Sequence record: MH051918
Direction: 5' to 3' (one strand)
Origin: Escherichia phage vB_EcoS_IME347
DNA: 50,048 nucleotides
The notes under the pieces are model-generated. The model saw only the letters and a list, made by a program, of their open reading frames with translations. It did no database searches and was not told the DNA's origin. Of this stretch, positions 1-50,048 are shown one piece after another. Positions within the stretch are counted from its first letter, which is position 1, and each line of letters starts with the position of its first letter. Both the position numbers and the translations under genes were made by a program.

Positions 1-450
1 CCTACCGACTTTTCCGTTTTTAGCAAAAAGTGCTATCGTGACAAGATTACATTGACTCGCTGTATATCACTGTCTACAATTTCCCGGATTTGTCGGCGTG
101 ACAAAATTACACCTCGCGCCCCTGAGAGTGAGATTACATAACTCTATGATATATATAATAATAATAGTTAAATTTTATCTTTTATATACATAAAATATTG
201 TATTGTCATTGTGGCGTATAGGGTGTACACAATGTATATCTCAGATTTCGTGAAAATGATAATTCATGGACATTTATACAGTACTCTATTTGCATATGCT
301 TATATAGGGAAAACACAGTGACATTGTATACAGTGTGTACACCGCAAAAAAATGCGCCGCGAGCCATTGTAAACGCTGGATTCTTATGTCAACATAGCCA
401 CTTATTGACGCCCCGATACGGGCATAGACACTGTAACTAAGGAGCACGTT
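1..450. promoter_or_regulatory. AT-rich divergent early control region A with operator-like inverted repeats
   Basis: No long ORF; AT-rich; copies of a GTGAC-N10-GTCAC-like 20-bp element at 37-56 and 95-113; a 40-bp block at 313-355 is nearly repeated in region B (31423-31465); lies immediately upstream of the first early ORF. Confidence 0.5.
17..37 (-). promoter_or_regulatory. intergenic motif copy (reverse variant) at the window start
   Basis: TTTTAGCAAAAAGTGCTATC; reverse complement matches the AATAGCACTTTTTGCTAAAA variant. Confidence 0.4.
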
Positions 451-3492: not shown

Positions 3493-3644
3493 TGGCAACT
3501 TGGTACTTAATCGCGATCACCTATTACGCCGGGGTTCAGCCGATCCCGTTCGACTCGCACAAGGCTTGCATTGATGCGCGAGAGGTAATCAAGAGAAACA
3601 ACCCGACAACCGCAAGCTTGCAGGTTGTATGCGTTAAGAAATAG
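3492..3644 (+). CDS. small hydrophobic protein (50 aa)
   Basis: ATG overlaps upstream stop (TAATG); hydrophobic N-terminus (MATWYLIAITYYAGV); stop TAG lies inside the following motif; below track cutoff. Confidence 0.3.
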   Translation: MATWYLIAITYYAGVQPIPFDSHKACIDAREVIKRNNPTTASLQVVCVKK

Positions 3645-3690
3645 CACGAATTGCTAAACCTTCCGCAAGGCCATTTGATATAGTGGCCTT
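3640..3690 (+). promoter_or_regulatory. intergenic motif module (AATAGCACGAATTGCTAAA + hairpin carrying TGATATAGT)
   Basis: Motif at 3640-3658; inverted repeat aaggcca..tggcctt at 3667-3690 enclosing the extended -10-like TGATATAGT at 3676-3684. Confidence 0.55.
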
Positions 3691-4355: not shown

Positions 4356-4654
4356 ACAACTTGCACGAACTGAAGATTTTCCCGCGCCACTTCTACGGCG
4401 TGAAGATGGGGCAGAAGAAAGCAGAATTCAGGGTTGACGATCGCGGATTCAAAACTGGCGACACGCTCCGCCTTCGCGAATGGCACGAGGGCGACTTTAC
4501 CGGGCGGGAAATCAGCGTTGTGGTGACTGACGTAACCGACGTGACCGAGTTCATCAATCGGGCGAACGCCGAACTGTACAACGGGAACCGCTTCGTAATG
4601 CTGTCGTTCTTCGTGGTTCACGCGAGCCTTTGCGATATCCCGTACATCCGATAG
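4352..4654 (+). CDS. ASCH-like (DUF3850-type) small protein (100 aa)
   Basis: N-terminal pattern HELKIFP..F..V..G.K..E.R..DR.F..GD.L.L.E...TGRE resembles the DUF3850/ASCH fold; judged by eye only. Confidence 0.45.
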   Translation: MNNLHELKIFPRHFYGVKMGQKKAEFRVDDRGFKTGDTLRLREWHEGDFTGREISVVVTDVTDVTEFINRANAELYNGNRFVMLSFFVVHASLCDIPYIR

Positions 4655-4702
4655 CACGAATTGCTAAAACAATAATCCGGGGCTATGCCATAATAGCCCC
4701 AC
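4650..4702 (+). promoter_or_regulatory. intergenic motif module (GATAGCACGAATTGCTAAAA + hairpin + CATAAT)
   Basis: Motif overlaps stop TAG; inverted repeat ggggctatg..catagcccc with TGCCATAAT-like element inside. Confidence 0.5.
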
Positions 4703-5280: not shown

Positions 5281-5474
5281 TTAACTACGAAGATGCAGCG
5301 CGTGACGCTATCGATGGTATGCTGCCAAATTCGAAGCGTGTGGCTCACTATCGCGGTTTTAAGGGTTCACCTGTTAAACTGTATTGCGAGATTTTGAAGC
5401 TCTCAGAAGTCGATACAGCGCGTTTAGAGGCATACGATTTTAAGCGTTTTTCGATAACCATCGAAACCAAATAG
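5265..5474 (+). CDS. hypothetical early protein (69 aa)
   Basis: In-frame ATG at 5265 within track ORF 5205..5474. Confidence 0.4.
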   Translation: MDSDLINYEDAARDAIDGMLPNSKRVAHYRGFKGSPVKLYCEILKLSEVDTARLEAYDFKRFSITIETK

Positions 5475-5520
5475 CACGAATTGCTAAAAACCTATCAGGG
5501 GAATGCGCTATGATTCCCCT
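5470..5520 (+). promoter_or_regulatory. intergenic motif module (AATAGCACGAATTGCTAAAA + hairpin + TATGAT)
   Basis: Motif overlaps stop TAG; inverted repeat ggggaatgcgc..gattcccc. Confidence 0.5.
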
Positions 5521-5976: not shown

Positions 5977-6026
5977 ATAGCACGAATTGCTAAAACTTGC
6001 TCAGGGGCATTTGTTATAGTGTCCCT
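5976..6026 (+). promoter_or_regulatory. intergenic motif module (AATAGCACGAATTGCTAAAA + hairpin with TGTTATAGT)
   Basis: Motif after stop TAA; inverted repeat ggggca..gtccc around TGTTATAGT. Confidence 0.5.
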
Positions 6027-6590: not shown

Positions 6591-7174
6591 TGAGCAAAGT
6601 AATCATTCTCAACGCGCCGCCAGCATGTGGCAAAGACACGATAGGTTCAATCATCGCGGATATGAATCAGATTTATGGCGTTCGCATGTTGAGCTTCAAA
6701 GCGCCGATGTTCGAGATCGCCCGAGCTATCCTCGGTGATGCGAACTTTGATTATTTCATGTTCCTTTATAACGATCGGCTCCATAAGGAAAAGCCCGATT
6801 CCATTCTGAACGGTAAAAGCCCGCGCGAGTTCATGATCTGGATTAGCGAGGCAATCATTAAGCCAGAATTCGGCAATGATTATTTCGGGCGTCGAATGGT
6901 TGAGGCTGTCAAGTCAGGCACTGCCCCGGCGATTATCACGGACGGCGGATTCACTGAAGAGACAATCGCACTAATTGAAGCTGGTATTCAGGTTCACGTC
7001 TGCCGACTGCACCGCGACGGATTCACGTTTGAAGGCGACTCGCGAAACTATCTTCACCTGCCTGTGGGCTGGCAAGGCGTAAACGGCTACACCGAAGAAG
7101 ATTTCCAGTTACGTGACGGTGATCCTGATTACACTGCCAGCGTGATTACCGGGAAATACCTGCGTCACTTCTAA
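6590..7174 (+). CDS. P-loop kinase, deoxynucleoside-monophosphate-kinase-like (194 aa)
   Basis: N-terminal IILNAPPACGKDT resembles the GKDT P-loop of phage dNMP kinases (T4 gp1 type); identified by eye, not by search. Confidence 0.5.
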   Translation: MSKVIILNAPPACGKDTIGSIIADMNQIYGVRMLSFKAPMFEIARAILGDANFDYFMFLYNDRLHKEKPDSILNGKSPREFMIWISEAIIKPEFGNDYFGRRMVEAVKSGTAPAIITDGGFTEETIALIEAGIQVHVCRLHRDGFTFEGDSRNYLHLPVGWQGVNGYTEEDFQLRDGDPDYTASVITGKYLRHF

Positions 7175-7224
7175 TAGCACGAATTGCTAAAAACTCGGCG
7201 GGGTAAGCTGTTATAGTTACCCCA
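7174..7224 (+). promoter_or_regulatory. intergenic motif module (AATAGCACGAATTGCTAAAA + hairpin with TGTTATAGT)
   Basis: Motif overlaps stop TAA at 7172-7174; inverted repeat ggggtaagctg..agttacccc. Confidence 0.5.
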
Positions 7225-7441: not shown

Positions 7442-7645
7442 ATGAGCAACACAATCAAACTTCGCACGACTCACGCCGATTGCCCTTGGATTACTCCGGG
7501 CAAGATTTACGAGGCCGAATTGGTTGCGAAAGATGGATTTGACGGACTGTATCGGCTGAAGAATCCAGACTTCGGAGAGGTGCTCACTGCAATTGAGAAC
7601 TCCTGTCATTTGGGCGGGGAAAGTTGGGAAGTAGTCACCGAATAG
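7442..7645 (+). CDS. hypothetical early protein (67 aa)
   Basis: Closely follows the previous ORF; contains the ITPGKIYE motif shared with ORF 4726. Confidence 0.45.
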   Translation: MSNTIKLRTTHADCPWITPGKIYEAELVAKDGFDGLYRLKNPDFGEVLTAIENSCHLGGESWEVVTE

Positions 7646-7692
7646 CACGAATTGCTAAAAGTTCCGCAAGGGCATTTGATAGAATGCCCTTA
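7641..7692 (+). promoter_or_regulatory. intergenic motif module (AATAGCACGAATTGCTAAAA + hairpin with TGATAGAAT)
   Basis: Motif overlaps stop TAG; inverted repeat caagggca..tgccctt enclosing TGATAGAAT. Confidence 0.5.
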
Positions 7693-9537: not shown

Positions 9538-9561
9538 AAACCCGCCTCGGCGGGTTTTTTT
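9538..9561 (+). terminator. intrinsic terminator ending the early gene array
   Basis: GC stem cccgcc-tcg-gcggg followed by a T7 run. Confidence 0.7.
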
Positions 9562-9579
9562 ACGTCTGGAGTATGATAA

Positions 9580-9598
9580 AATAGCACGAAATGTTAAA
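9580..9598 (+). promoter_or_regulatory. intergenic motif copy (AATAGCACGAAATGTTAAA) upstream of terS
   Basis: Motif variant between the terminator and the RBS GGAGG at 9604-9608. Confidence 0.45.
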
Positions 9599-9614
9599 CA
9601 TCGGAGGACGTTTT

Positions 9615-10139
9615 ATGGAACGGAAAGAGAAAGCGCCCGTAGTGCAGGGCGGTAATTTTAAGGAGCTATACCGAAAGAAATTCGGAACGATTATCGGAAA
9701 ATCAGCCAGCTTCACGCCTGAACAGGTTTTCGATCTGGCGGTGAAGTATTTCACGTGGGCGGAGGACAACGCAATTAAAGCCTCTGAGACAGCGAGTTTT
9801 CAGGGTGAAGTGGAGGAGTCACTCGTTCATAAACCGCGCGTGTTTACTCACAACGGCTTCCGCCTGTTCCTTGGGATCAGCGAGTCGGCGGTCACGAAGT
9901 GGCGGCGACAGGAAGATTTCGCAGAGGTGATGGAGTTCGTTGATACGGTAATCAGCGAGCAGAAATTCCAGCTTGCAGCTAACGGCGTGATTAATGCCTC
10001 GTTCATCGGGAAAGACTTGGGGATCGACAAGCCAGCGACAATCAACATCGACAACCAAGCGAACGCCACGGCGGGCGCGATCGCCTCCACTGAGTCCGCG
10101 ATGCGCGATGCGGTAGAGAGTATTCTGGATAACCTTTAA
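9615..10139 (+). CDS. terS: terminase small subunit (putative)
   Basis: ATG at 9615 with GGAGG RBS; lies immediately upstream of the large terminase gene; HTH-like segment. Confidence 0.55.
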   Translation: MERKEKAPVVQGGNFKELYRKKFGTIIGKSASFTPEQVFDLAVKYFTWAEDNAIKASETASFQGEVEESLVHKPRVFTHNGFRLFLGISESAVTKWRRQEDFAEVMEFVDTVISEQKFQLAANGVINASFIGKDLGIDKPATINIDNQANATAGAIASTESAMRDAVESILDNL

Positions 10140-16017: not shown

Positions 16018-16100
16018 CCGGAAGATCCTGAACCGGAAGAGGGAGGCGAAACTGACCCGGAAGAAGGTTCAGAGGGTTAACACAAAAACAGTTTGACGCT

Positions 16101-16118
16101 TTAACAAAAAGTGCTATC
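16101..16118 (-). promoter_or_regulatory. intergenic motif copy (TTAACAAAAAGTGCTATC, reverse variant) upstream of the capsid gene
   Basis: Reverse complement matches the AATAGCACTTTTTGTTAA variant; followed by a hairpin plus T run at 16121-16147. Confidence 0.4.
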
Positions 16119-16167
16119 ATAAAGCCGTTATCACTTAACGGCTTTTTTCACAAAAGAGGATGTAAAC

Positions 16168-19843: not shown

Positions 19844-19868
19844 GGGGGCGCTTGCGCTCCCTTTTTTG
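19844..19868 (+). terminator. intrinsic terminator after the major tail gene
   Basis: GC stem gggggcgc-ttgc-gcgctccc followed by a T6 run; an extended -10-like TGTAGAAT lies just downstream. Confidence 0.6.
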
Positions 19869-19948
19869 TTTCTGTAGAATCACTGTATCAAATCAATACG
19901 GCGCTGTTTTAACAAAAAGTGCTATCACACCAATCAGGAGAAATGACA

Positions 19949-20580: not shown

Positions 20581-20584
20581 CAAG

Positions 20585-20606
20585 CCGCCTTCGGGCGGTT
20601 TTTTTG
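20585..20606 (+). terminator. intrinsic terminator-like hairpin before the tape-measure gene
   Basis: gccgcc-ttc-gggcgg followed by a T7 run, then GGAGGA RBS. Confidence 0.5.
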
Positions 20607-20623
20607 TATCTGGAGGAATAATT

Positions 20624-23893: not shown

Positions 23894-23920
23894 AAAGCCC
23901 GCCTTGCGCGGGTTTTTTTA
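23894..23920 (+). terminator. intrinsic terminator (cccgccttgcgcggg + T run), twin of 26029-26053
   Basis: GC hairpin followed by a T8 run; the same 22-bp sequence recurs at 26029; an extended -10-like CTGTAGAAT follows. Confidence 0.6.
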
Positions 23921-23962
23921 TAGCTGTAGAATAGATGAACATTTATAGAGGAGGTCAGGAAA

Positions 23963-26028: not shown

Positions 26029-26053
26029 GACCCGCCTTGCGCGGGTTTTTTTT
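26029..26053 (+). terminator. intrinsic terminator (twin of 23894-23920) followed by TGTATAAT
   Basis: Identical cccgccttgcgcggg hairpin plus T run; extended -10-like TGTATAAT at 26058-26065; motif copy at 26079-26099. Confidence 0.6.
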
Positions 26054-26101
26054 CGCCTGTATAATGGCATCACCGATAAATAGCACAAAAGGTTAAACAT
26101 C

Positions 26102-30109: not shown

Positions 30110-30129
30110 TTTTAGCAATTCGTGCTGTC
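30110..30129 (-). promoter_or_regulatory. intergenic motif copy (reverse orientation) with hairpin and TATACT
   Basis: Reverse complement reads TGACAGCACGAATTGCTAAAA and includes the stop codon of the 216-aa gene, followed on the - strand by hairpin ccccggaaacgggg and TATACT. Confidence 0.5.
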
Positions 30130-30778
30130 AGTTGTAACCTTGGAATCTGGCATAAGGAATCTTGAGCCGTCCACGGCCTGAGAATATCTCAGCGAAAGAC
30201 TTCTGGTTATTCCTTATCCATGTTGTTTGCAACTGCGATCCCGTCCATCTCATTAGGTTCCCCGAGTAGCCAACGGCGAAACCGTCGTCACTCCACTGCC
30301 CGAAGCAGTTATTCCATAGGAAAAACGGGTTGAATCCCGGCGTCACCGACACGACCCGACCCTCAAGGTTTACGTTTCCGGCAACGTCAAGGAATCCCAT
30401 AATTCGAGGCATTGTCGCAGCGCTCGCGGCAGACCAGACAAGATTCCCGCTGGCGTCGAAAACGTCCAAGTAGCCCGACACGTTGGGCTTGTTTCTTGAC
30501 GTCCTAATTACCCTGATCGAGTTCGGAACGAACAGGTTCGCGCCGGGATATCCCCAACCGTTATTGGCGGTGAACTGAATCCAGTATAGATAACCATCCT
30601 CCCGCTTGAAATTGTAGTTCAGATAAGCGAGGGAGCTTACATTTCCAAATGGAGTTGACACGTTGTAATCGCCTGTATTCAACATTCCGGGCGTAACGAT
30701 GGAATCGAAAATCGTGTGTTTCTGATCGGAGTTGATCAGGACTACCCCGGCGTCATTCAAAACCTCAAAACCTGACAT
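30128..30778 (-). CDS. hypothetical beta-rich protein (216 aa), paralog of the 30788..31096 product
   Basis: Shares DASGNLV and N-terminal G-hydrophobic-x-hydrophobic-(W/L)-(N)DA motifs with the adjacent ORF; Gly/Asn/Ser/Val-rich. Confidence 0.5.
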   Translation of the reverse strand: MSGFEVLNDAGVVLINSDQKHTIFDSIVTPGMLNTGDYNVSTPFGNVSSLAYLNYNFKREDGYLYWIQFTANNGWGYPGANLFVPNSIRVIRTSRNKPNVSGYLDVFDASGNLVWSAASAATMPRIMGFLDVAGNVNLEGRVVSVTPGFNPFFLWNNCFGQWSDDGFAVGYSGNLMRWTGSQLQTTWIRNNQKSFAEIFSGRGRLKIPYARFQGYN

Positions 30779-31096: not shown

Positions 31097-31609
31097 AGCA
31101 TTTTCCTCCCAAAATTAATGAATACACATATTAGCTTTTTGCCCTCGGGGAGTCAAAGTTACAGATTTTGCGGTGTAACATCTGTCTACTTTTGTAACCA
31201 AAATGAGGCGTGACAAAATTCGCTCATTTTTTAATCAGCATGACGCACCTTAAGATATAGAAAACTCCTTATAATATATATAGATAGATATAAATTGTTA
31301 TTTTACCTTTTATATATAAATTAGAGGTGTAACCGTTGTATATATTGTCACGGTGTATTTTGTGATGCGCTCAATTTTCTACATCATAATCATGTGAATT
31401 CTGTATTGCGGTATTTTTCTATAAACACAGTTACATTGTATACAGTGGTTACGCCGCAATAAAACACGCCTCAAACGCTTGATATTTATGGACTCGCATT
31501 GTCACGGGTAATTTTGTGACGCCCGAATACACTCATTGACATCGTTACAGGTTGACTAAATGCCGGGAATGGTTATACTGTCCACATCATCAACGAAGGA
31601 GATAAACGA
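31097..31609. promoter_or_regulatory. AT-rich divergent control region B with operator-like inverted repeats
   Basis: 513-bp non-coding region; GTCAC-N10-GTGAC-type elements at 31207-31223, 31345-31370 and 31498-31524; conserved block at 31423-31465 shared with region A. Confidence 0.5.
31552..31579 (+). promoter_or_regulatory. sigma70-like promoter (TTGACT-N16-TATACT) for the recombination operon
   Basis: TTGACT at 31552-31557 and TATACT at 31574-31579, 16-nt spacer, about 30 nt upstream of the RBS of ORF 31610. Confidence 0.5.
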
Positions 31610-32686
31610 ATGTTCAAGGTATTCACGAATGACCAGCTTTCTAACGACGCATATCACGATCCTGAAGGTTGGGCGGCGGAGTACGTAAGCGGCTCAAGCC
31701 TCGCAGAAATCTTCAATACCTGCCCTGCGAACTGGCGGTTCAAGAAGAACGAGATCACAAAGGCTCTTGAGTTCGGTACTCAGTCACATACGAACTTCGA
31801 AAGCAAGGCTCTGTTTGAGGCGTCATATAAGCGCTGCCCTCACCCGAAAGAGTTTAAGGATCTGATTACGTCACAGTCGGCTCTCGCTGCGAAATTAAAA
31901 TCATTCGGCCTGAAAGGTACGAGCGGCAAGCAATATCCCGATCTGATTCGCATGATGGTTGATTGCGGTGAAATGCTCAACGTGCAATGGCTAATTGAAA
32001 TGATCGCGGAAGCGGAAGCGCGAGCGGAAGGAAAGAAACTTGTGGACGCCGAAGCATACGACGCTTGCGTAACAATGCGCCAAGTTCTGGAGAACATCCC
32101 CGAGCACAACGCTTGCATTAACAGCCCAACGGCGATGCATGAGGTTTCAATCTTCGGGGTGATTTCAGGAGTCAAAGTCAAGGTTCGCTTAGACCATCTG
32201 GATTTCGCGGAGAACGTTCAGGCGCGTGTCCTGACTGGTTTCAACAACGAAGGCGAACCAGAATACGAAGATGTGATTTACCCTGAAGCTCTCGTGATTA
32301 CCGATTTCAAGACAACCCAAAGCGCTAACCCGATGGAGTTCCCGAGGCTCGCGTTCAACCACGGCTACTACCTGAAAATGTCACTACAACATGACCTGCT
32401 CAAGCGAGCGATTCAGGCCGGAGCGTTCGAAGGGGTGAGCAAGGACATTCCTATTATCGTTCGCCTACTCGCTCAGGAGAAGAAAGAGCCTTATCTGCCT
32501 CTTGCGTACCGCATGACGATGGAGCAGATCAGGATCGGGCGTCAACAATATATCAGCGTTGTCCACACGTTTAAAGAGTGCTTGGAGTCAGACGTTTGGC
32601 CTTCATACGCTAACGGAGCGGCAGAGGTTGAACTGGAAACTCCGAAGTTCGTTCGCTACCAGTATGATTCACGTTGCAGCATGTAA
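31610..32686 (+). CDS. recombination exonuclease (PD-(D/E)XK-type, putative)
   Basis: 358 aa; D...(I)TDFKT-like PD-(D/E)XK signature; located upstream of the annealing-protein and SSB genes. Confidence 0.55.
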   Translation: MFKVFTNDQLSNDAYHDPEGWAAEYVSGSSLAEIFNTCPANWRFKKNEITKALEFGTQSHTNFESKALFEASYKRCPHPKEFKDLITSQSALAAKLKSFGLKGTSGKQYPDLIRMMVDCGEMLNVQWLIEMIAEAEARAEGKKLVDAEAYDACVTMRQVLENIPEHNACINSPTAMHEVSIFGVISGVKVKVRLDHLDFAENVQARVLTGFNNEGEPEYEDVIYPEALVITDFKTTQSANPMEFPRLAFNHGYYLKMSLQHDLLKRAIQAGAFEGVSKDIPIIVRLLAQEKKEPYLPLAYRMTMEQIRIGRQQYISVVHTFKECLESDVWPSYANGAAEVELETPKFVRYQYDSRCSM

Positions 32687-32767
32687 ACAGCACAAATAGC
32701 TAAACATGTAATTCTCGGGGTGTTATAATGCACCCCGTAGACAAGAAACCAATCAGGAGATAACGAA

Positions 32768-33421
32768 ATGATTCTTTCCCCACAGTCTGACCAAATCCTC
32801 CCGGCTCTGTTCAAGGCTCGCGGTAAATTCGTGAAGGCGAAGAAAGACCGACAAAACACCCACCTGAAAAACAAGTATGCAACGCTTGATTCCATGATGG
32901 ACGCCGTTACCCCGGCACTTACGGAAAACGGTATTATGATCATGCAATCCATGCTCGACACGAGCACGGACACAACCTTCCATCTGGAAACGATGCTGAT
33001 TCATGCGGAGAGCGGACAGTTTGCCCGGTTCTTTATGTCAATGCCGATCGCGAAGCGTGACCCTCAAGGCGTAGGCTCCGCAATGACTTATGCACGGCGA
33101 TACGGGTTGGCGGCGGCTCTCGGTATCAGTCAGGCGGACGACGACGCGCAGCTTGCCGTTAAGTCAGCGTCGGACTGGAAAAAGGATCTCGACGATTGCG
33201 AAACGTTCGACGAACTGAAAGACGTTTGGGCGAATGCCTTCCGCCAGTGTGACGCAGCGAACAGAACCATCGTTCAAGATCACTACAACCAACTGAAGGC
33301 GAAATTCGAAGTCGGCAAGGCTCGTCCGTTCGCCCCGGCGCAAAAGCCGAAGGTTGAAAAACAGGTTGAACCTGAGCAGCGCAAGCCTGTACAATCTCAA
33401 TCAATCGAAGGTTTCGAATAA
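32768..33421 (+). CDS. single-strand annealing protein (Erf-like, putative)
   Basis: 217 aa; YARRYGL-type motif; position between the exonuclease and SSB genes. Confidence 0.55.
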   Translation: MILSPQSDQILPALFKARGKFVKAKKDRQNTHLKNKYATLDSMMDAVTPALTENGIMIMQSMLDTSTDTTFHLETMLIHAESGQFARFFMSMPIAKRDPQGVGSAMTYARRYGLAAALGISQADDDAQLAVKSASDWKKDLDDCETFDELKDVWANAFRQCDAANRTIVQDHYNQLKAKFEVGKARPFAPAQKPKVEKQVEPEQRKPVQSQSIEGFE

Positions 33422-33468
33422 TATCAACCGGGCGGGTAACACCGCCCTTTATCATGAGGTGAAAAAAT

Positions 33469-33885
33469 ATGCACGTTATCACAGGCGAGATCCGAAAAGC
33501 TCCATTCGTAAAGCAGCAACCAAACGGAAATCTGTATATCATCGAACTGTCCGAGCGATACAAGCCGGGACGCGATGCGGCTGCGGAGTACACGAACTAT
33601 AAGTTCTTCTTCAATGACGGCGGCAGACAAGCGATCGCAGATTGGTACGCCGAAGCATTCCAGCAGGGCAAGGTTATTTCAGTGTCGTGTGAAGTCCTGA
33701 AAGCCGAAGTTCGCGATCACGAAGGCAAGACCTACGTTACCCTTATGCCGGGCGACTTCCCGAAATTGCTCTTCAGTCAGCGAGGCGGTAGCGCTCCGCA
33801 GCAATCACAACAACGCCAGCAGTCGCAGCCTCAGCAACGACAGCCGCAGCAACAACAAAACTTCGACGACGATATCCCGTTCTAA
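33469..33885 (+). CDS. ssb: single-stranded DNA-binding protein
   Basis: 138 aa with Gln/Pro-rich linker and the canonical acidic C-terminal tail DDDIPF. Confidence 0.75.
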   Translation: MHVITGEIRKAPFVKQQPNGNLYIIELSERYKPGRDAAAEYTNYKFFFNDGGRQAIADWYAEAFQQGKVISVSCEVLKAEVRDHEGKTYVTLMPGDFPKLLFSQRGGSAPQQSQQRQQSQPQQRQPQQQQNFDDDIPF

Positions 33886-35797: not shown

Positions 35798-35817
35798 AAT
35801 AGCACTAATTGCTAAGC
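35798..35817. promoter_or_regulatory. intergenic motif copy (AAATAGCACTAATTGCTAAG) upstream of the tail fiber gene
   Basis: Palindromic motif variant between the primase terminator and the tail-fiber start. Confidence 0.4.
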
Positions 35818-35857
35818 ACCGATTTTATCATTGTGGTATGCGCCCGGCAATAGGGCA

Positions 35858-35881
35858 ATAAAAAACCCGCCGAAGCGGGTT
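35858..35881 (-). terminator. intrinsic terminator (- strand) after the primase gene
   Basis: Reverse complement gives aacccgc-ttcg-gcgggtt followed by a T run. Confidence 0.55.
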
Positions 35882-36824
35882 AGATTAAATCCGATGCCTG
35901 ATAAAGCTTGCGTTCCATTCCTGACCGGAAACCTCCCGGATTCGGGATTATCACCTTCAACTCCCGATCGTCCGCCATATACAGAGCTTCCTTATCATCC
36001 GGCGAACATGCAACGCGCAACTCCCTTCCTCCTCTGTACCTGTATGCAACCATTTCCAGATTGGCAGGGGTGAAGCACGTCCACACCTCCTGCCCCGTCG
36101 CAAGGTGTACTCGCTGCGAGTCAATCCAATCAACGCAAAGGTAAATCGCCTTCTCAGTAGAACCTGTCACGGCAACCGATCCGGCAGTGTGCTTCCTTGC
36201 ATAGAACGACTGCTCCCCCTCCTCATTAATGAATAGGATATTGCAAAACTCGTCGTCCAATTCATCTTCATGAACAAGGTGGCATGGAATGGCATGAATT
36301 ACCGATTCTCCGCCATTCTCCAGCGACTTCACGCCTACGGAGTACATCTTATCATCTGGTAGGAAGATCCCCTCATACGTGCTCAGTGGCGTCGTAGGGC
36401 GTAGTTCTGTCCTTTCCATTACAGCCGCGCAAGCCTCATGCTCTGCGATCGCAGCATTCACTACGGCAACCGGAGTGCGGCGAGCCTTTTTATTCGCCTT
36501 GACAATATACTCCTGCGGAACTTTACCCAAGAATCTCCCGGCAATATTGATTGCTTCGCTGTAGTCAGACCCGGAGAGTTTCATTAGCCAGCCGATACCC
36601 GTGTCGTTACCGCACGAGTTGCACACCGCGCCGCCGTCGCCCGGCTCATTTAGTTTATCAGTCCAGCGAAATCGATCTTTACCTCCGCAGTTTGGGCAAG
36701 GCTGGTGTTTCTTGTTAAAAACGTCGTTAGGTAGTCCGCAAACACTCTGCAAGATCTCACGCCACAGCCCTTTCATGTACGGAAGAACATCTTCTTTCTG
36801 GTACTGCATAAAGTTCTCGTTCAC
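35880..36824 (-). CDS. DNA primase (zinc-ribbon + TOPRIM-like)
   Basis: N-terminal zinc ribbon CPNCGG...CNSCGN and downstream acidic TOPRIM-like motifs; 314 aa. Confidence 0.7.
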   Translation of the reverse strand: MNENFMQYQKEDVLPYMKGLWREILQSVCGLPNDVFNKKHQPCPNCGGKDRFRWTDKLNEPGDGGAVCNSCGNDTGIGWLMKLSGSDYSEAINIAGRFLGKVPQEYIVKANKKARRTPVAVVNAAIAEHEACAAVMERTELRPTTPLSTYEGIFLPDDKMYSVGVKSLENGGESVIHAIPCHLVHEDELDDEFCNILFINEEGEQSFYARKHTAGSVAVTGSTEKAIYLCVDWIDSQRVHLATGQEVWTCFTPANLEMVAYRYRGGRELRVACSPDDKEALYMADDRELKVIIPNPGGFRSGMERKLYQASDLI

Positions 36825-36845: not shown

Positions 36846-36900
36846 CGCGTAACAGGAGTTTACCCGCTACGCGCTTTTGTGTTTTAGCTATTTGTGCTCT
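36846..36900 (-). promoter_or_regulatory. hairpin plus reverse-orientation motif copy at the end of the HTH gene
   Basis: On the - strand: motif GAGCACAAATAGCTAAAA (36883-36900, overlapping the stop of gene 36884..37327) followed by stem cgcgta..tacgcg and a T run. Confidence 0.45.
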
Positions 36901-37327
36901 CGACTTCATCCTTTCGAACTACGCGCATGAACTTGCGGTTCTTGCATCGTTTTTCAAGGCACTTTCCGTTAGAGTCGAACTTGAGATCGAATCGCAGCCA
37001 GCTTGCGCGATACCCGGTACAACCCTGACGACGATACGCGCGATGCGCCGCCTCCGCTCCCTGCCAAGAAATCATGCCGCGAACTTTCCATTCGTTCACA
37101 TTCTGATTTGTTACCTTCAGGGCTTTCGCCGTGGCGGAGGGGGAGCCGTAGAATTCGATCAGGGCGTCAAGTCTGGCGCGTAGTCCGGCGCGAACCTCAT
37201 CTTTCAGGATGTAGAATCCGCATCGCTTGCGAGGCTTTACATCTTTGCCCCGTCGTGTACCATTGTTCCCGTTCAGGTGACGACGATCGATTTCCCCGGT
37301 TGATTCTGCAATACGCTTGATTGTCAT
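36884..37327 (-). CDS. HTH-domain protein (YdaS/Cro-like), putative regulator
   Basis: Central segment GSPSATAKALKVTNQNVNEWKVRGMIS resembles a YdaS/Cro-type helix-turn-helix; divergent from the helicase gene. Confidence 0.4.
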   Translation of the reverse strand: MTIKRIAESTGEIDRRHLNGNNGTRRGKDVKPRKRCGFYILKDEVRAGLRARLDALIEFYGSPSATAKALKVTNQNVNEWKVRGMISWQGAEAAHRAYRRQGCTGYRASWLRFDLKFDSNGKCLEKRCKNRKFMRVVRKDEVESTNS

Positions 37328-39472: not shown

Positions 39473-39894
39473 TTACAGATAAGGGCGATTATTTAGAGTT
39501 TTACGAGCGCGACCCGAGCGACACGAGAAAGGAGGTAGTTCACCAAATTGAGAGCACTTCCTTTTTGAAAGTTCGACACCCTGACTTGCTGTTTTGGCAT
39601 AGTGTCAACGAGAACGAGAAGAGCAAGGCGACCGCAATGATTGATCAGCAATCCGGCTTATTGAAGGGAGTTAGTGACTTCGTTTTCCTGATTGGTTTCA
39701 ATCACCGATACCCGTTCGCCGCAATCGAACTTAAGCGCGTGAATAAGTCCGGCAAAGGCAAGGCGTCACCCGTAAGCGATGAACAGAAAGCCTTCTTGCG
39801 GAAGGTCAGGGAGCGAGGCGGGTTCGCCGCAGTAGCCTACGGGGTGGAGCAGTTAAAACTCGCAGTAGCTGAAATGCTCAAACAGCACGAATAG
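39469..39894 (+). CDS. VRR-NUC domain nuclease
   Basis: 141 aa; GVSDFV...AIELKRVN...EQKAF pattern typical of VRR-NUC; ATGA overlap with the helicase gene. Confidence 0.6.
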   Translation: MITDKGDYLEFYERDPSDTRKEVVHQIESTSFLKVRHPDLLFWHSVNENEKSKATAMIDQQSGLLKGVSDFVFLIGFNHRYPFAAIELKRVNKSGKGKASPVSDEQKAFLRKVRERGGFAAVAYGVEQLKLAVAEMLKQHE

Positions 39895-39954
39895 CTAAAA
39901 CAGCCGGAAAGGAATCCGGCATAATCACCACATCGAAACAACGGAGAGAAACAA

Positions 39955-41737: not shown

Positions 41738-42877
41738 ATGTCAATGTCAAAAATCACAACCGAACAGCTTATCGAAGAGCGCGAAAACGGCCTGACCCTT
41801 CGCGAGATCGCGGAGAAGTACGGGATGCATATCCGCACGGTTGAGGCTCGACACGCGAAGCTTGCAAAGGAAGGTCACTTCCACGGCAACAAGCACGTAG
41901 CCGCCAACGTTCCGACCGGGTTCGCCGTAAAAGGTACGTCCGTCATGATTGACGCCGAAGGCAACGAAAAGGTTCGCTGGGTTAAGACCGATCAGGACAA
42001 AGAGAAGATTTACCAACTCATGCAAGCGGCGCAGGTTGCATTTTGCGAAGAGTTGCCGCGCGAAGCCCCAACCCCGATCGAAATAAACAAGCGATTCGAC
42101 GAGGATTCGCTGGCGCTTTACCCGGTATTCGATCTTCATATCGGCGCACTGGCGCACAAGCACGAGTCCGGCGAGAACTACTCCACCGATATCGCGGAAG
42201 ATGTTCTGAACAAGTATTTCGGCTATGCAGTCGGCAAGGCTCCTAACGCACAAAAAGCCGTCCTGTTAATCGGCGGTGACTTCCTGCACTCTGACGGCCT
42301 TGACGCTGTTACCCCGGCAAGCGGTCATGTTCTGGATCAGGACTCGCGTTATGCCAAACTGGTTTACGTCGCAATCCGCGCTACTCGCCGGGCGATCGCT
42401 AAGATGCTGGAGAAACATGCTGAGGTTGAGGTTCAGATTATCGAAGGCAACCACGATCAGGCAGGTATGATTTGGCTACGCGCTGCAATGGCGGCATACT
42501 ACGAGGACGAGCCGCGCGTGAACGTTGACGTTAGCCCGATGATTCTGCACAAAACCCGTTGGGGCAAAACGCTGTTAGGCTACACTCACGGTCACACGAT
42601 GAAGAAAGCGGACACTCGCCTTGCAGCAATGGCGGCAGACTTCCGCGATGATTTCGGCGCGAGCAAGTACGTTTACACTCACAGCGGTCATTGGCATCAC
42701 CAGACGATCACCGAGCATACGTTGGGTATCGACGAGGTTCACGGTCAACTCGGGGCGAAGGATGCTTATGCGGCTCGCGGCGGCTGGCGAGCGTACCGTC
42801 AAGCGGCTGTTATCGTGTACTCAAAAGAGTTTGGCGAGATCGGGCGCTTTATCTACCGTCCAGAAATGACGGCGTAA
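41738..42877 (+). CDS. HTH-fused calcineurin-like metallophosphoesterase
   Basis: N-terminal HTH-like LTLREIAEKYGMHIRTV; phosphoesterase motifs DLHIG, GGDFLHSD, GNHD, GHTH/GHWH in canonical order; RBS AAGGAA. Confidence 0.65.
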   Translation: MSMSKITTEQLIEERENGLTLREIAEKYGMHIRTVEARHAKLAKEGHFHGNKHVAANVPTGFAVKGTSVMIDAEGNEKVRWVKTDQDKEKIYQLMQAAQVAFCEELPREAPTPIEINKRFDEDSLALYPVFDLHIGALAHKHESGENYSTDIAEDVLNKYFGYAVGKAPNAQKAVLLIGGDFLHSDGLDAVTPASGHVLDQDSRYAKLVYVAIRATRRAIAKMLEKHAEVEVQIIEGNHDQAGMIWLRAAMAAYYEDEPRVNVDVSPMILHKTRWGKTLLGYTHGHTMKKADTRLAAMAADFRDDFGASKYVYTHSGHWHHQTITEHTLGIDEVHGQLGAKDAYAARGGWRAYRQAAVIVYSKEFGEIGRFIYRPEMTA

Positions 42878-42896
42878 ATAGCACAAATAGCTAAAG
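42876..42896 (+). promoter_or_regulatory. intergenic motif copy (AAATAGCACAAATAGCTAAAG) with hairpin + TTATAGT
   Basis: Motif overlaps stop TAA; followed by inverted repeat ggggtaacg..gttacccc. Confidence 0.45.
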
Positions 42897-42951
42897 ACAA
42901 ATCAGGGGTAACGAGTTATAGTTACCCCACACAAACAAAGGAGATTTAGCA

Positions 42952-45003: not shown

Positions 45004-46566
45004 TTACATTAAGCGCGGATTGATATAAATGTTGTCGTCCACACGGCAAACGTAATTCATGCTTTCCAGCGTTTCCAGCAACGTTTCGATACGCTCCGCA
45101 ACCTTTTGCTGCCCGTTAAACGGAGTGACGTTCCGGCACTTCGCGATCACGCTCTGAATCTGCGCCCGGCCTTTGTTCTTTTTGGCGATCTCACTAACCA
45201 CGTCGATAAGCTTGCGTGATTCAGCTTCATCACCTGCGAAACCTGCGGCGTTTGCAGACGAGAGATAAGTTTTTGACAACTCGTTAAACGTCATGATCGC
45301 TTCCTGCATTGTGTCCAAGTCGATCTCACGATTCGCCCGGTTCGGCTTCTCACCAGCCCAATTCTTGATCGTGTGAATCACGGACGCGATACGAATTACG
45401 TGTTTATCGAATTTCCCCAAGTGACCGCGCAACATGGAGTGTGAGTATTTCCCGCCCGCCGCGAAGCTGGCTTCCATATCCTGACGAGCAAGGTTCAGCG
45501 CTCGGGTTGCGTGAAGGCTCAGGCTGAAAACTACCTTCTCTTCGTTCATGACGTTATGAACGAGGCGGTAATATTTGCTCACGAGCGCCTTGTCAACTGG
45601 CTTGTAAACTGCGTCGCCGTTCTCGTCACACAATACGCGAGTACCCAAACGAGGCTCTTCGCGAACCAGTAAGAAACGCTCGGAAACACCGATACCGCGC
45701 TGACCTGCATCCATGATGCCCTTGATTGTTTCGTCCTGCGCGATTACGCAAATTGCACCAACCGGACGTAAAGAAAGGTTGTTGTCCTGATTGGATCGAG
45801 CTACTTCCATATGGTTCATATCCCAAGCCTTCAGGATTAGCTCGCTGTTCGACTTCTTATCAGTCCCGCCATACGTCAAACCGAGAAGTGTATTGATTGC
45901 CGTCGCTTCGTCCGAGATAACGGAGAAGTTACCCTGAATCGCCGCAACCTTAGCCAAACCCTCTGGAGTAGGATCGGAAACCGCAAACACAACGTTAGCA
46001 GCCTTTTTGAGCTTCTCTTCGATTTTCTCCTTCTCTTCGTACAGGGCAACCATTGAGTTTCCTTTTACGTCGTTCTTGATCTCCTTTTCGATCTTGCGGA
46101 GTTCCCCGGCGAGGCGTGAACGTTCGGCCTTACGCTTCTCGTTGATGCGGTCAATCTCTGCTCGCATCGGGTTAATGGCTGCGGAGTTGATCGCAGATTT
46201 ACCCGTTGACGGCGGCTGGCTGATTACCATGTAAAGTGCGGTTGGCTGCTCTTCACCGTGATAGTCAACCCAAAAGCGACCGAGCATCGCGGCGGACATA
46301 CATCCGATAAAGTGAGCGTATGCGGACGAAACCGGGAATTGCACTGATTCAGCTTTAGCCTTTGCGTATTCGTAAACGAGGTTATCGCCACCGAGGGAAA
46401 TCAACGGAAAACGATCGTTGCCGCTGTTAATCTCTTCGGGCTTATCCCAAAAAGCAAATGAATCCGAGAAGCCGTTTTCGCGAATAGCGATCGCCACCGG
46501 ATTTACTCCAGTAGCTGCGGCGATTTCTTGGATCTGATTGATGGAAAGTTTATTTTGGAAGAACAT
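45004..46566 (-). CDS. P-loop ATPase, putative replicative helicase/primase-associated (DUF3987-like)
   Basis: Walker A ISQPPSTGKSA and Walker B-like VISDEAT; 520 aa; preceded by a motif module at 46585-46637. Confidence 0.55.
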   Translation of the reverse strand: MFFQNKLSINQIQEIAAATGVNPVAIAIRENGFSDSFAFWDKPEEINSGNDRFPLISLGGDNLVYEYAKAKAESVQFPVSSAYAHFIGCMSAAMLGRFWVDYHGEEQPTALYMVISQPPSTGKSAINSAAINPMRAEIDRINEKRKAERSRLAGELRKIEKEIKNDVKGNSMVALYEEKEKIEEKLKKAANVVFAVSDPTPEGLAKVAAIQGNFSVISDEATAINTLLGLTYGGTDKKSNSELILKAWDMNHMEVARSNQDNNLSLRPVGAICVIAQDETIKGIMDAGQRGIGVSERFLLVREEPRLGTRVLCDENGDAVYKPVDKALVSKYYRLVHNVMNEEKVVFSLSLHATRALNLARQDMEASFAAGGKYSHSMLRGHLGKFDKHVIRIASVIHTIKNWAGEKPNRANREIDLDTMQEAIMTFNELSKTYLSSANAAGFAGDEAESRKLIDVVSEIAKKNKGRAQIQSVIAKCRNVTPFNGQQKVAERIETLLETLESMNYVCRVDDNIYINPRLM

Positions 46567-47058: not shown

Positions 47059-47124
47059 CGATTCATTCCTTCTGATTGGTTATCTTGAATAAGGCCACTA
47101 TATCAAATGGCCTTACGGCAATAT

Positions 47125-47143
47125 TAACAAATCGTGCTATTTA
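47125..47143 (-). promoter_or_regulatory. intergenic motif copy (reverse) with hairpin carrying TGATATAGT
   Basis: On the - strand: AAATAGCACGATTTGTTAA overlapping the stop of gene 47141..47386, followed by aaggcca..tggcctt around TGATATAGT, nearly identical to the module at 3640-3690. Confidence 0.5.
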
Positions 47144-47386
47144 CCAAGGAATATAATCCTTTCCCGGCTCCGAATCATCTTCGGCGGTCATAACGAAATT
47201 TGGATCGAATTCGCTTTCTGCATCCATATCCATTTCACCAAGAGCCTGTTCCAAGGTTAAATCCTGATACGCAACTTTGATACAATATTCGCGATTCAGT
47301 CCGGCATCCTGCGCAGTTAAAAAACGATGCCAGAAGTTATCATCATTATTTTTGCAAGGTGCATTGGTCATTTCGATTAACTCCAC
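47141..47386 (-). CDS. hypothetical acidic protein (81 aa)
   Basis: ORF in track; overlapping start of the downstream gene. Confidence 0.45.
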   Translation of the reverse strand: MELIEMTNAPCKNNDDNFWHRFLTAQDAGLNREYCIKVAYQDLTLEQALGEMDMDAESEFDPNFVMTAEDDSEPGKDYIPW

Positions 47387-47666: not shown

Positions 47667-47686
47667 TTTAGCAATTCGTGCTATTT
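47667..47686 (-). promoter_or_regulatory. intergenic motif copy (reverse; AAAATAGCACGAATTGCTAAAA on - strand)
   Basis: Exact consensus in reverse orientation, followed on the - strand by hairpin ggggtgat..atcacccc. Confidence 0.5.
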
Positions 47687-47827
47687 TGAAATGCGATATT
47701 GCATTCCGCTCAAGTCCTCAGGCGACACCGAATAACACGGCTCCCAAGTTCCGTTGACCTTATTGTATTTGCGCACACCTCCAGCGATGCGATACATGCC
47801 GCCGTTATTGTCGTAATAAGTAATCAT
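47681..47827 (-). CDS. small hypothetical protein (48 aa)
   Basis: ATGA overlap with the stop of gene 47824..48147; stop TAG inside the motif copy; below track cutoff. Confidence 0.3.
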   Translation of the reverse strand: MITYYDNNGGMYRIAGGVRKYNKVNGTWEPCYSVSPEDLSGMQYRISK

Positions 47828-48857: not shown

Positions 48858-48879
48858 TTTTAACAAAAAGTGCTATTTA
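48858..48879 (-). promoter_or_regulatory. intergenic motif copy (reverse variant) with hairpin
   Basis: On the - strand: AAATAGCACTTTTTGTTAAAA overlapping stop of gene 48877..49194, followed by ggggtagtttggcataattacccc. Confidence 0.5.
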
Positions 48880-49794: not shown

Positions 49795-49860
49795 GAGTTG
49801 CTCCGTTGTTTTGTGTGCTTCGTTTCGATGAGTGTATTATGCCAAACCAAGCCGATCGAT

Positions 49861-49880
49861 GTTTAGCAAAAAGTGCTATT
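49861..49880 (-). promoter_or_regulatory. intergenic motif copy (reverse variant) at the head of the leftward array
   Basis: On the - strand: AATAGCACTTTTTGCTAAAC, upstream of gene 49516..49794. Confidence 0.45.
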
Positions 49881-50048
49881 CCTGAAATTGTCGATTATTC
49901 CACCGATTCTGGAATAACTGGAATACTTGATGATTACTCATGATTGCAAATGACAAGTTGTGATTATTGCGTGATGTGGAATGATTGCTGTGATTGTTGC
50001 TTGTAATGCAATGAATGTGGAGGGGAGATTATTATGATGCGCTCCTCG

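Follow-up and report, generated by a model that had tools for sequence, protein, structure and literature searches.

Two distant regions carrying the same initiator-binding repeats beside AT-rich DNA are found in the Bacillus phage SPP1 (oriL and oriR) and in the satellite phage P4 (ori and crr), whose initiators, G38P and alpha respectively, belong to other families than DUF3987. At oriF and oriG of T4 and at the primary origin of T7, a promoter reads into an AT-rich unwinding segment, and periodic repeat arrays are not known from these origins. Pairs of similar cis-elements are also known from transcription control: lambda nutL/nutR and HK022 putL/putR lie one per early operon and act on the transcript, as strand-specific RNA structures whose pairing is conserved. 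The classic T phages, seven in number, include T1, and its relatives, the Drexlerviridae, count among the most frequent coliphages and contaminants of fermentations. In the T1 family, the 21-nt intergenic repeat aaATAGCACnnnTTGnTAAAA has been described as a conserved, family-wide cis-element of unknown function, and the 2024 re-annotation of TLS, in which iterons were sought and none were reported, counts the cis-elements of the family among the open questions (PMC11447400). Our literature search found no replication origin or transcriptome mapping for this family. SaPI origins have an AT-rich centre that divides a series of 6-12 iterons, each of five or six nucleotides, the iterons on its two sides being oppositely directed, and the SaPI Rep proteins, including an SF6 member, self-load at these origins (PMC9371898). 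Proteins of the DUF3987 family are considered to be replicative helicases of SF6 that carry a wHTH at the C-terminus (PMC4889955).

The window analyzed here is the whole record MH051918 of Escherichia phage vB_EcoS_IME347 (hereafter IME347), a stretch of 50,048 nt that represents the complete genome of a T1-like (Drexlerviridae) phage and to which all positions refer. The end of the stretch joins its start. Region A covers positions 1-450 and extends over this junction back to 49795, and the intergenic space around it (49795..50048 plus 1..450) amounts to about 700 bp. Region B (31097-31609) is non-coding. Both regions are AT-rich, with a GC content of 0.37 in A and 0.35 in B versus about 0.50 for the genome, and both are flanked by divergent ORFs, as the first-pass annotation had described. 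It had also proposed that A and B have cis-elements in common, and this holds well beyond chance: the internal alignment of A 131-437 with B 31253-31548 showed 63% identity over 316 columns (E 4e-19), and B was the sole significant match of region A elsewhere within the IME347 genome. Judged from their sequences, A and B are paralogous copies of one module of about 450 bp (Table 1). From left to right, this module comprises a cassette of GTNAC-type hexamers, a core of 58-60 bp with more than 90% A+T, a top-strand TGT array with a spacing of about 9 bp, a spacer of about 50-65 bp, an ACA array in mirror image with an A-run behind it, another cassette and finally a near-consensus sigma-70 promoter for the first gene. 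The GC skew across the genome tracks gene orientation and yields no independent origin signal. A region of TGATTG words adjoining A may be pac, but it is missing from B and therefore cannot explain a module common to both.

Table 1. Features of modules A and B and candidate trans-acting proteins in the IME347 genome (positions in the 50,048-nt window; a dot marks features without assigned strand).
Feature	Position	Strand	Remarks
Leftward T1-family promoter box, reverse complement of AATAGCAC-NNN-TTGCTAAA	49862..49881	-	genome-wide 21-nt repeat family, not an A/B-specific element
Second leftward AATAGCAC-type box, TTTAGCAAAAAGTGCTATCG	19..38	-	left boundary of module A; kept in relatives
Left cassette, module A	37..113	.	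CGTGACAAGATTACA (37-51) and CGTGACAAAATTACA (97-111), bracketing the promoter at 52-80
TTGACT-17-TACAAT	52..80	+	best sigma-70-like score genome-wide in a simple weight-matrix scan; rightward into module A
AT core, module A, 60 bp	145..204	.	least stable duplex segment of the genome; GC 0.08 in 60 nt, z 6.0
Proximal array, module A	204..245	+	top-strand TGT units (TGTCAT TGTGGCG..GGTGTACACAATGTATATC)
Distal array and A-run, module A	311..369	+	GTGACA-TATACA-TGTACA, then CCGCAAAAAAA; mirror of proximal array
Sigma-70-like site TTGACA-15-TACAAT	366..392	-	predicted; leftward into the arrays of module A
Sigma-70-like promoter TTGACT-17-TAATAT	31128..31156	-	predicted; leftward, for the gene ending at 31096
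Left cassette, module B	31158..31231	.	GTTACA, TGTAACA, TGTCTA, TGTAAC, then GGCGTGACAAAATT (31207-31220)
AT core, module B, 58 bp	31268..31325	.	second least stable genome segment, z 5.8
Proximal array, module B	31326..31372	+	TGTAACCGT TGTATATAT TGTCACGG TGTATTT TGTGATGCG, period 7-9 bp; contains the element first noted at 31345-31370
Distal array and A-run, module B	31423..31481	+	GTTACA-TATACA-GTTACG, then CCGCAATAAAAC
Promoter-proximal cassette, module B	31498..31549	.	ATTGTCACGGGTAATTTTGTGACGC (sole full GTCAC-N10-GTGAC element), then TTGACATCGTTACA
TTGACT-16-TATACT, near-consensus sigma-70-like	31552..31579	+	recE-erf-ssb operon promoter; kept in all relatives
DNA primase, T7/P4-type zinc ribbon	35880..36824	-	candidate primer maker at the modules
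147-aa Cro/YdaS-like HTH protein, phrog_2856 "transcriptional regulator"	36884..37327	-	candidate binder if the repeats are operators
520-aa DUF3987 protein	45004..46566	-	candidate trans-acting factor; MCM-like AAA+ core and C-terminal winged helix

The repeats had initially been described as operator-like inverted repeats, with an element of about 20 bp of the GTCAC/GAC form at five sites. Related repeats are indeed present, but the copies in A are half-elements without the second arm, and GTCAC-N10-GTGAC does not recur, having a single occurrence at up to three mismatches (31501-31520). The unit is a short GTNAC or TGT-N-AC word in periodic arrays and not a 20-bp palindrome. In a relative with a 98% identical helicase, the GTCAC arms read GTAAC, so the palindrome itself is not the conserved feature. 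A block of 40 bp noted at 313-355 and 31423-31465 proved to be a real near-repeat, with a true extent of 59 nt (311-369 versus 31423-31481, 80% identity). GGCGTGACAAAATT was found exactly at 95-108 and 31207-31220 and as an inverted copy with one mismatch at 31510-31523; at up to two mismatches there were three matches versus 0.55 expected, all three inside A or B. TGTNAC reaches a density of 21 per kb in B and of 5.7 in A versus 1.0 per kb elsewhere; for TGTAYAY the values per kb are 12.8 (A), 5.8 (B) and 0.25 (elsewhere). The left cassette of module A contains a 15-nt direct repeat, CGTGACAA(G/A)ATTACA (37-51 versus 97-111, 93% identity), and CGTGACAAAATTACA at 97-111 is nested in GGCGTGACAAAATTACACC at 95-113. 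The left cassette of module B recurs directly at 31321-31378, at a spacing of 154 bp, and has inverted copies at 31342-31362, 31438-31459 and 31499-31523, while 31344-31368 and 31498-31522 form a 25-nt direct repeat (84% identity). The A/B repeat unit is degenerate and low in information, being essentially TGT/ACA plus a few positions.

No other segment of the genome is as unstable as the two AT cores (z 6.0 and 5.8, next 3.8), and TATATA occurs nine times in A and B together and never in the remaining 49 kb. The left edge of the core reads TATGAT/TATATA in module A and TATAAT in module B, the latter within the block that is most conserved across lineages (cTTATAATATATAtAGATAGATA). In 17 non-redundant modules, TGT outnumbered ACA by 84 to 12 over the 60 nt to the right of the core, and ACA outnumbered TGT by 56 to 17 at +90 to +165 from it, with a modal unit spacing of 9 bp in the arrays. 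The TGT and ACA arrays lie head-to-head at a distance of about 80-110 bp and flank the spacer right of the main AT core, not the main core itself, around which inversion is limited to the nearest units (GTGACA ... TGTCAC). The TGT bias is confined to the right side of the core, and the left flank has no strand bias. In 21 of 31 modules, no more than 3 of 100 shuffles attained the best inverted repeat to the right of the core, and in most of these modules its first arm begins within about 40 nt of the core. Repeat units are present in both orientations, which argues for recognition as double-stranded DNA.

Our preferred reading, to which we give a probability of roughly 0.45, is that A and B are twin modules that would combine a phage replication origin with host-type early promoters. 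Replication-origin iterons had been listed earlier among the alternatives for these repeats, and they appear to fit the module anatomy best. A phage protein would bind the repeated units on either side of easily melted DNA, the best candidate being the MCM-like DUF3987 helicase through its C-terminal winged helix, as for the SaPI Rep proteins. The duplex would then be opened by two oppositely oriented assemblies, synthesis would be primed by the phage primase (35880-36824) and the primers would be extended by host polymerase, and transcription from the flanking early promoters may aid the opening. The likeness of A and B would be maintained by mutual recombination or by co-evolution with the binding protein.

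Like SaPI origins, the modules contain sets of short repeats of element-specific sequence together with an AT-rich stretch, and they may also resemble them in the opposite direction of the sets on its two sides (PMC9371898). Repeat number is also SaPI-like, with 11 TGTNAC words in B and 13 TGTNAC or TGTAYAY words in A (6- to 50-fold enriched), and the cores at 145-204 and 31268-31325 provide an AT-rich, easily melted centre. The same is true of TLS and Rtp, in which the two least stable segments lie at the same two map positions as the IME347 cores. SaPI initiators are AAA+ helicases (SF3 or SF6/MCM-like) that have a winged helix at the C-terminus and work with a primase, either separate or fused; IME347 encodes a helicase of this fold, a candidate initiator whose binding to the repeats is putative, as well as a primase. 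Unlike SaPIs, IME347 has two modules of about 450 bp per genome, with extra cassettes and promoters, and its strongly biased arrays are found to one side of the main AT core, where they enclose another, less extremely AT-rich spacer. Whereas a SaPI origin lies immediately downstream of the adjoining rep gene, the IME347 helicase gene belongs to the leftward operon beginning at region A, and its end is 3.2 kb away from module A and 13 kb away from module B. The winged helix of the helicase has a putative recognition helix (VAERIETLLETLES) that looks acidic. Alignments over six lineages revealed no clear pattern of co-variation with the repeat unit in the HTH protein, the helicase winged helix or the helicase N-terminus. 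The two-region layout is like that of SPP1 and P4, although repeat architecture and spacing differ. As in T4 and T7, the best sigma-70-like site of module A (52-80) is placed about 65 bp upstream of the AT core, but module B has no equally good promoter at the matching place.

A more specific version, which we put forward only tentatively, is that A and B could be the T1-family origins at which the SF6 MCM-like helicase assembles head-to-head on the 9-bp TGT/ACA arrays, as the bacterial-virus counterpart of archaeal/eukaryotic MCM double-hexamer loading, the two origins being kept alike by the phage's own recombination system. In a variant of this version, the arrays would be template-strand sites of the T7-type zinc-ribbon primase, with top-strand sites priming leftward leading strands and bottom-strand sites rightward ones. 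If A and B are origins, they would offer a tractable E. coli system for MCM-type loading on double-stranded DNA without ORC-like factors, and this role would explain why the A and B spacers escape the compaction seen elsewhere in the genome. The analysis locates two precise conserved loci and names the helicase, the primase and the HTH regulator as candidate proteins.

The first-pass annotation had made its proposal depend on conservation of the elements in related phages, and they are kept in T1, Shfl1, JMPW1, Sertoctavirus, TLS and Rtp. The same module pair was found in T1, TLS and Rtp, which represent three subfamilies. Over these subfamilies, the two copies, the order of their parts and their orientation are kept while coding DNA is 65-78% identical or lower, and the AT core and TGT/ACA periodicity persist even where the intervening sequence diverges. 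The repeat unit is lineage-specific, although the recorded hosts are all Escherichia or Shigella: it reads GTGACA/GTTACA/TGTACA in IME347, TTTACAA in the relatives L091/L095, TGTAAT/TGTAAG in Sertoctavirus, TGTAAC/TGTTAATCG in T1 and GTGAACA in TLS. The repeat sequences often appear to change together in A and B, as suggested by the numbers of 9-mers common to A and B within versus across lineages (17 versus at most 7, 41 versus at most 14, 17-24 versus at most 7, and 11 versus at most 8). In Tunavirus proper, A-B similarity is not in excess, and within a single phage, as in L090/L094, A and B can have different repeat variants. Close relatives were gathered through the helicase protein and not by word matching. 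Of two exact-word scans of viral contigs, one returned IME347 alone and the other about 70 matches, mostly due to chance, which included three known T1-like phages.

The main alternative, serious but rather unlikely, is that the modules are early-transcription control regions only. Host-sigma-70 promoters would fire at infection, and the repeats would be operators for a phage regulator, such as the 147-aa phrog_2856 HTH protein, which would later shut off or boost the four operons leaving A and B; the AT core would serve as a tract that bends DNA or resembles an UP element, or as a promoter lacking the -35 element. Both A and B head early operons, and among the nine sigma-70-like sites that score best in the genome, three fall in the modules. 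The predicted promoters at 52-80 (+), 31552-31579 (+) and 31156-31128 (-), which rank among the best of the genome, match the hexamers at 10, 10 and 9 of 12 positions with 16-18 bp spacing, and the first is identical in the close relatives L089 and L090. A TATAAT/TATGAT hexamer is kept at the left edge of every AT core and, together with the three sites, makes a purely transcriptional role possible. The Chapo and T1 records carry promoter annotations in their homologous regions, in both cases at the place matching 31552-31579. The phage also encodes an HTH regulator: among the proteins suggested earlier as binders, that at 36884..37327 is a Cro-like HTH protein (phrog_2856), but that at 41738..42877 turned out to be a DNA-repair exonuclease family protein. 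However, operators normally overlap the -35 and -10 elements, whereas the distance of most units from the promoters is 100-300 bp, and they form periodic head-to-head arrays about the least stable DNA. TLS module B sits between the same-strand genes J and recE and retains its left half without a divergent gene there, so the left half is not merely a divergent-promoter operator. In addition, the HTH recognition helix is identical in IME347 and L092, yet their repeat units differ; we infer that its conservation fits the invariant ATAGCAC promoter box better than the repeat units. If the repeats are operators after all, the modules would define the early regulatory switch of the family.

It is improbable that the repeats act through RNA, with the proximal and distal arms pairing into a long hairpin, either in the transcript or in single-stranded DNA of the plus strand, for example as a structured leader of the two rightward early operons (RNase III site or put-like antitermination RNA). 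As with nut and put, there are exactly two similar elements per genome. Arm 222-238 of module A is 94% complementary to 327-343, and arm 31425-31455 of module B is 77% complementary to 31326-31356, with four of seven mismatches of the G-T type. Predicted folds of the plus-strand RNA reached -41 kcal/mol in B (z -3.9) and -40.6 kcal/mol in A (z -2.6), those of the minus strand being weaker (z -1.1 and -1.7, respectively). Across lineages the arms vary while complementarity is kept, with one compensatory change between CLB_P3 and pSf-2. The plus strand was more stable in 27 of 31 modules, but the left-flank control also favoured it (22 of 30 modules), consistent with G+T richness. RNAalifold returned no consensus pairs in 27 modules, and the pairing registers of IME347 A and B are offset by 11 alignment columns. 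Family-wide, 54-60% of cells pair, against 44-54% when slid by two columns. It is at the periodic TGT/ACA cores that the well-kept pairs are concentrated, and the same units recur beyond the arms in both orientations. A fixed RNA helix across the family is thus not supported by these comparisons and, unlike nut and put, the A/B elements failed a family-wide pairing test and have units in both orientations. Rfam 15 gave no match at gathering score in the whole IME347 genome.

Still less probable is that the repeats are sites for a host protein (CRP, DnaA or OmpR/ArcA-type) recruited by the phage at both regions. The TGTGA units resemble host half-sites, as presumably does the GTTACA unit, and T1 region A has one 8/9 DnaA-box match. 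CRP-type sites had been suggested earlier, but TGTGA-N6-TCACA at up to two mismatches occurs at chance level (21 matches versus 19 expected), with one weak match in A and none at the elements. DnaA boxes (TTATNCACA) or GATC clusters were not consistently present in 29 modules: DnaA-box matches at up to one mismatch number 0-3 per module, unconserved in position or sequence across lineages, and GATC sites 0-4 per module. More generally, lineages whose hosts, where recorded, are always Escherichia or Shigella differ in the unit, which makes a host regulator unlikely. One DnaA-like match recurs among closely related Tunavirus A modules. We give equally little credit to the idea that the A/B likeness is a functionless by-product of an old AT-rich spacer duplication homogenised by the phage-encoded RecE and Erf: A and B do evolve in concert within lineages, but both copies, their part order and their orientation are kept across three subfamilies despite coding divergence, and the AT core and TGT/ACA periodicity outlast the sequence between them.

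The 21-nt repeat of the family is present in the same genomes, and two copies of it bound the left side of region A. It differs from the A/B units in having about 25 dispersed copies, oriented along the direction of transcription and lying just upstream of -10-like hexamers, and in a sequence that stays the same from lineage to lineage; the A/B units, by contrast, are lineage-specific and restricted to two loci. The elements common to A and B do not match aaATAGCACnnnTTGnTAAAA; only 19-38 and 49862-49881 do. The latter box sits at the far left of the intergenic space of region A.

The window is the complete genome of a T1-like siphophage (Drexlerviridae, Tunavirinae; 50,048 bp), and the IMG/VR contig UViG_2974601010_000001 is the same genome. 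In its structural genes it shares about 78% identity with the Sertoctavirus phages SRT8, IME-JL8 and BrunoManser; the recE region is T1-like. Sequence matches to the T1 GenBank record showed that the right end of the window runs on into its left end: the first bases of that record match the final 150 bases of the window, and T1 position ~103 corresponds to window position ~19. Since the ends join, the intergenic space of region A comprises 49795..50048 plus 1..450. The second non-coding region, B, spans 31097-31609.

The first-pass annotation had described operator-like GTCAC inverted repeats and a 40-bp block common to A and B. These elements exist, but the description was too narrow; the present analysis confirms the observation in part and extends it considerably. 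Positions 131-437 of A align with 31253-31548 of B (E 4e-19), and no other part of the genome gives a significant match to A. The element CGTGACAA(G/A)ATTACA has two copies (37-51 and 97-111), while GGCGTGACAAAATT has two exact copies, at 95-108 and 31207-31220, plus an inverted one at 31510-31523 that carries a single mismatch. With up to two mismatches allowed, GGCGTGACAAAATT has three matches against 0.55 expected, all within A or B. Segments 31344-31368 and 31498-31522 are 84% identical. The block is common to both regions but measures 59 nt (311-369 versus 31423-31481, 80% identity). The full 20-bp form GTCAC-N10-GTGAC has a single occurrence, and it is not preserved in a phage with a 98%-identical helicase, where GTCAC reads GTAAC.

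Both regions are built from the same parts in identical order and orientation, hereafter named the module (Table). In B, the TGT array reads TGTAACCGT TGTATATAT TGTCACGG TGTATTT TGTGATGCG, and the cassettes recur at a direct periodicity of 154 bp, with several inverted copies. No other duplex segment of the genome is as low in GC or as unstable as the two AT cores (z 6.0 and 5.8; next 3.8). TATATA is found nine times in the two regions together and is absent from the other 49 kb. Densities per kb are 21 (B), 5.7 (A) and 1.0 (elsewhere) for TGTNAC, and 12.8 (A), 5.8 (B) and 0.25 (elsewhere) for TGTAYAY.

Features of the modules and of the phage genome (promoters are predictions from a simple weight-matrix scan of the whole genome for sigma-70-like sites)
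Feature	Position	Strand	Remarks
Part 1, left cassette			hexamers GTNAC/TGTNAC, ATTACA, TGTCTA in mixed orientation; terminates in GGCGTGACAAAATT
Part 2, AT core	145-204 (A), 31268-31325 (B)		~40 bp past left cassette; 58-60 bp, >90% A+T
Part 3, array of TGT-initiated units		top	immediately right of core
Part 4, spacer			about 50-65 bp, moderately AT-rich
Part 5, mirror-image array			the block first annotated; GT(G/T)ACA, TATACA, (T/G)(G/T)TAC(A/G), then CCGCAA(A/T)AAAA
Part 6, additional cassette
Part 7, sigma-70-like promoter, ribosome-binding site, first gene
Genes diverging from A	from 49794; from 451	leftward; rightward
Genes diverging from B	from 31096; from 31610 (recE)	leftward; rightward
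Primase	35880-36824		T7/P4-type zinc ribbon
Cro-like HTH protein	36884-37327		147 aa, phrog_2856
SF2 helicase	37421-39472
DUF3987 protein	45004-46566		520 aa; in leftward operon starting at A
Predicted sigma-70-like site	52-80	+	TTGACT-17-TACAAT; top score genome-wide
Predicted recE promoter	31552-31579	+	among top nine of genome
Predicted leftward promoter	31156-31128	-	among top nine of genome
Predicted minus-strand sites	392-366, 31463-31435	-	point back into arrays
AATAGCAC repeat	969-990, 1234-1255, 2251-2272, 3641-3662, 4651-4672, 5471-5492, 5977-5998, 7174-7195, 7642-7663, 9581-9602, 35799-35820, 39882-39903, 42878-42899	+
AATAGCAC repeat	19-38, 16100-16119, 19908-19927, 30111-30133, 47123-47145, 47667-47689, 48859-48881, 49498-49520, 49862-49881	reverse complement
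Intrinsic-terminator-like hairpins	9540-9574, 19846-19880, 20584-20618, 23898-23932, 26031-26065		CCCGCCTTGCGCGGG plus T-run

The proposed elements are kept in related phages, with both modules at equivalent map positions in each of four groups: Tunavirus (T1, Shfl1, JMPW1, pSf-2, Chapo, CLB_P3) and Sertoctavirus (BrunoManser, SRT8); four uncultured relatives found via the helicase protein; TLS (Tempevirinae); and Rtp (Braunvirinae). The module A and B loci of TLS and Rtp likewise coincide exactly with the two segments of lowest duplex stability in each genome. The number of 9-mers common to A and B is higher within one phage than between A of that phage and B of any other lineage, or the converse; such an excess was seen in the window, L091/L095 (relatives forming one repeat-unit lineage), Sertoctavirus and TLS lineages, and Tunavirus proper showed no A-B excess. 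In Rtp, which was outside this comparison, long stretches common to A and B were seen by eye.

The best-supported explanation for the observed anatomy, conservation and statistics is that A and B are copies of a duplicated module combining a replication origin with early promoters, to which we assign a probability of roughly 45%. By analogy with known origins, proteins would bind, the duplex would melt and initiation would take place at the modules. The main rival, purely transcriptional control by a phage regulator, is considered less likely. A TATAAT- or TATGAT-like hexamer stands at the start of every AT core; no conserved -35 element was found upstream of these hexamers. In TLS, module B is flanked by two same-strand genes, and its left half is thus not merely the operator of a divergent promoter. 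Origin function and transcriptional control are not mutually exclusive. As far as we could check, the module has not yet been described in the accessible literature; a re-annotation of TLS searched for iterons and reported none (PMC11447400). With these modules, the unmapped origin of T1-family phages becomes directly testable.

The arrays run head to head. Across 17 non-redundant modules, the 60 nt right of the core contain 84 TGT against 12 ACA (modal spacing 9 bp; genome average, 0.8 per 66 nt), and positions +90 to +165 show the mirror image (56 ACA against 17 TGT, spacing 8-9 bp). The left flank of the core has no TGT/ACA bias. In 21 of 31 modules, no more than 3 of 100 shuffles equalled the best inverted repeat right of the core; its arms are lineage-specific (for example, window A, GGTGTACACAATGTATA/TATACAGTGTGTACACC; L095, TGTAAAGTTGTAAAGT/ACTTTACAACTTTACA; TLS, TTCCATTGTTC/GAACAATGGAA). 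For the window arms, the predicted folds of plus-strand RNA have unusual stability (z -3.9 in B, -2.6 in A) and those of the minus strands do not; the left-flank control shows this plus-strand advantage too, in keeping with simple G+T richness. A family-wide RNA hairpin fails the pairing test across modules: RNAalifold gave no consensus pairs for 27 modules, the pairing registers of window A and B lie 11 alignment columns (about one repeat unit) apart, and pairing occurs in 54-60% of cells versus 44-54% with the partner slid two columns. Well-kept pairs are concentrated at the periodic TGT/ACA cores. Repeat units are also present outside the arms, in both orientations. From these results together we conclude that the two arms are probably sets of one binding unit, arrayed in opposite orientations in double-stranded DNA; individual phages may form a transcript hairpin. 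An Rfam search gave no match.

Host factors were also considered. The CRP-type sites suggested by the first-pass annotation found no support, as such palindromes occur at chance level and away from the elements, and a DnaA-type origin was rejected, the modules containing no consistent DnaA boxes and no GATC clusters. Since the repeat unit is lineage-specific and the recorded hosts of the compared phages are all Escherichia or Shigella, a phage-encoded binder, inter-copy recombination or both are favoured over a host factor.

The closest described architecture to the window modules is the SaPI origin. SaPI Reps, one of them SF6, are self-loading helicase-initiators that use their winged helix to read iterons of five or six nucleotides; each origin has 6-12 of these, running in opposite directions and divided by an AT-rich centre (PMC9371898). 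An MCM-like helicase and a primase are established in the window at fold and family level. The third helix of the helicase winged helix is acidic here, and the helicase gene adjoins neither module; protein-repeat co-variation across six lineages gave no clear pattern. Together, these points argue against a simple transfer of the SaPI model. A confident structure model of ORF1, the gene adjoining A, had no structural relative.

Several other elements were observed. The word (T)TATATATACAGTAC (window form CATTTATACAGTAC, 268-286) lies in the module A spacer of nearly all lineages, and in region A of L003, L005, L007, L009, L011 and L015 among the retrieved relatives; it is A-specific, with no module B counterpart. 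Short GC-rich words common to A and B lie just left of the AT core in Rtp (CCGCGGAAA) and TLS ((A)TCCGGCGTA), and may represent a second conserved element between left cassette and core. In the recE-erf-ssb block beside module B (31610-33885, + strand), GC skew is slightly negative (about -0.02), against +0.04 to +0.17 in most other + strand genes; the block may differ in its history or in its replication/transcription regime.

The repeat AATAGCAC-NNN-TTG(C/T)TAAAA has about 25 copies genome-wide, many followed ~17 nt on by a TATAGT-/TATAAT-like hexamer and then a small hairpin-like GC segment. This repeat, 21 nt long, was reported in TLS as a T1-family element, and its function is listed there as open (PMC11447400). 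It contains a small palindrome (TAGCA..TGCTA) and stays invariant across subfamilies, in parallel with the conservation of the HTH protein phrog_2856; we speculate that this protein could be its binder.

Between two leftward ATAGCAC boxes, 49895-50030 holds a run of TGATTGC, TGATTAT, TGATTAC and GCAATGA words, kept in all relatives and missing from region B. Because the T1 GenBank record begins within the homologous stretch, the run probably represents the pac or terminal region that the small terminase (9591-10139) recognises. The CCCGCCTTGCGCGGG hairpins are directly followed by CTGTAGAAT or CTGTATAAT, and the weight-matrix scan across them gave TTGCGC-17-TAGAAT/TATAAT. The terminator stem may thus also serve the next promoter as its -35 element, which would give the late region a 'transcripton' layout.
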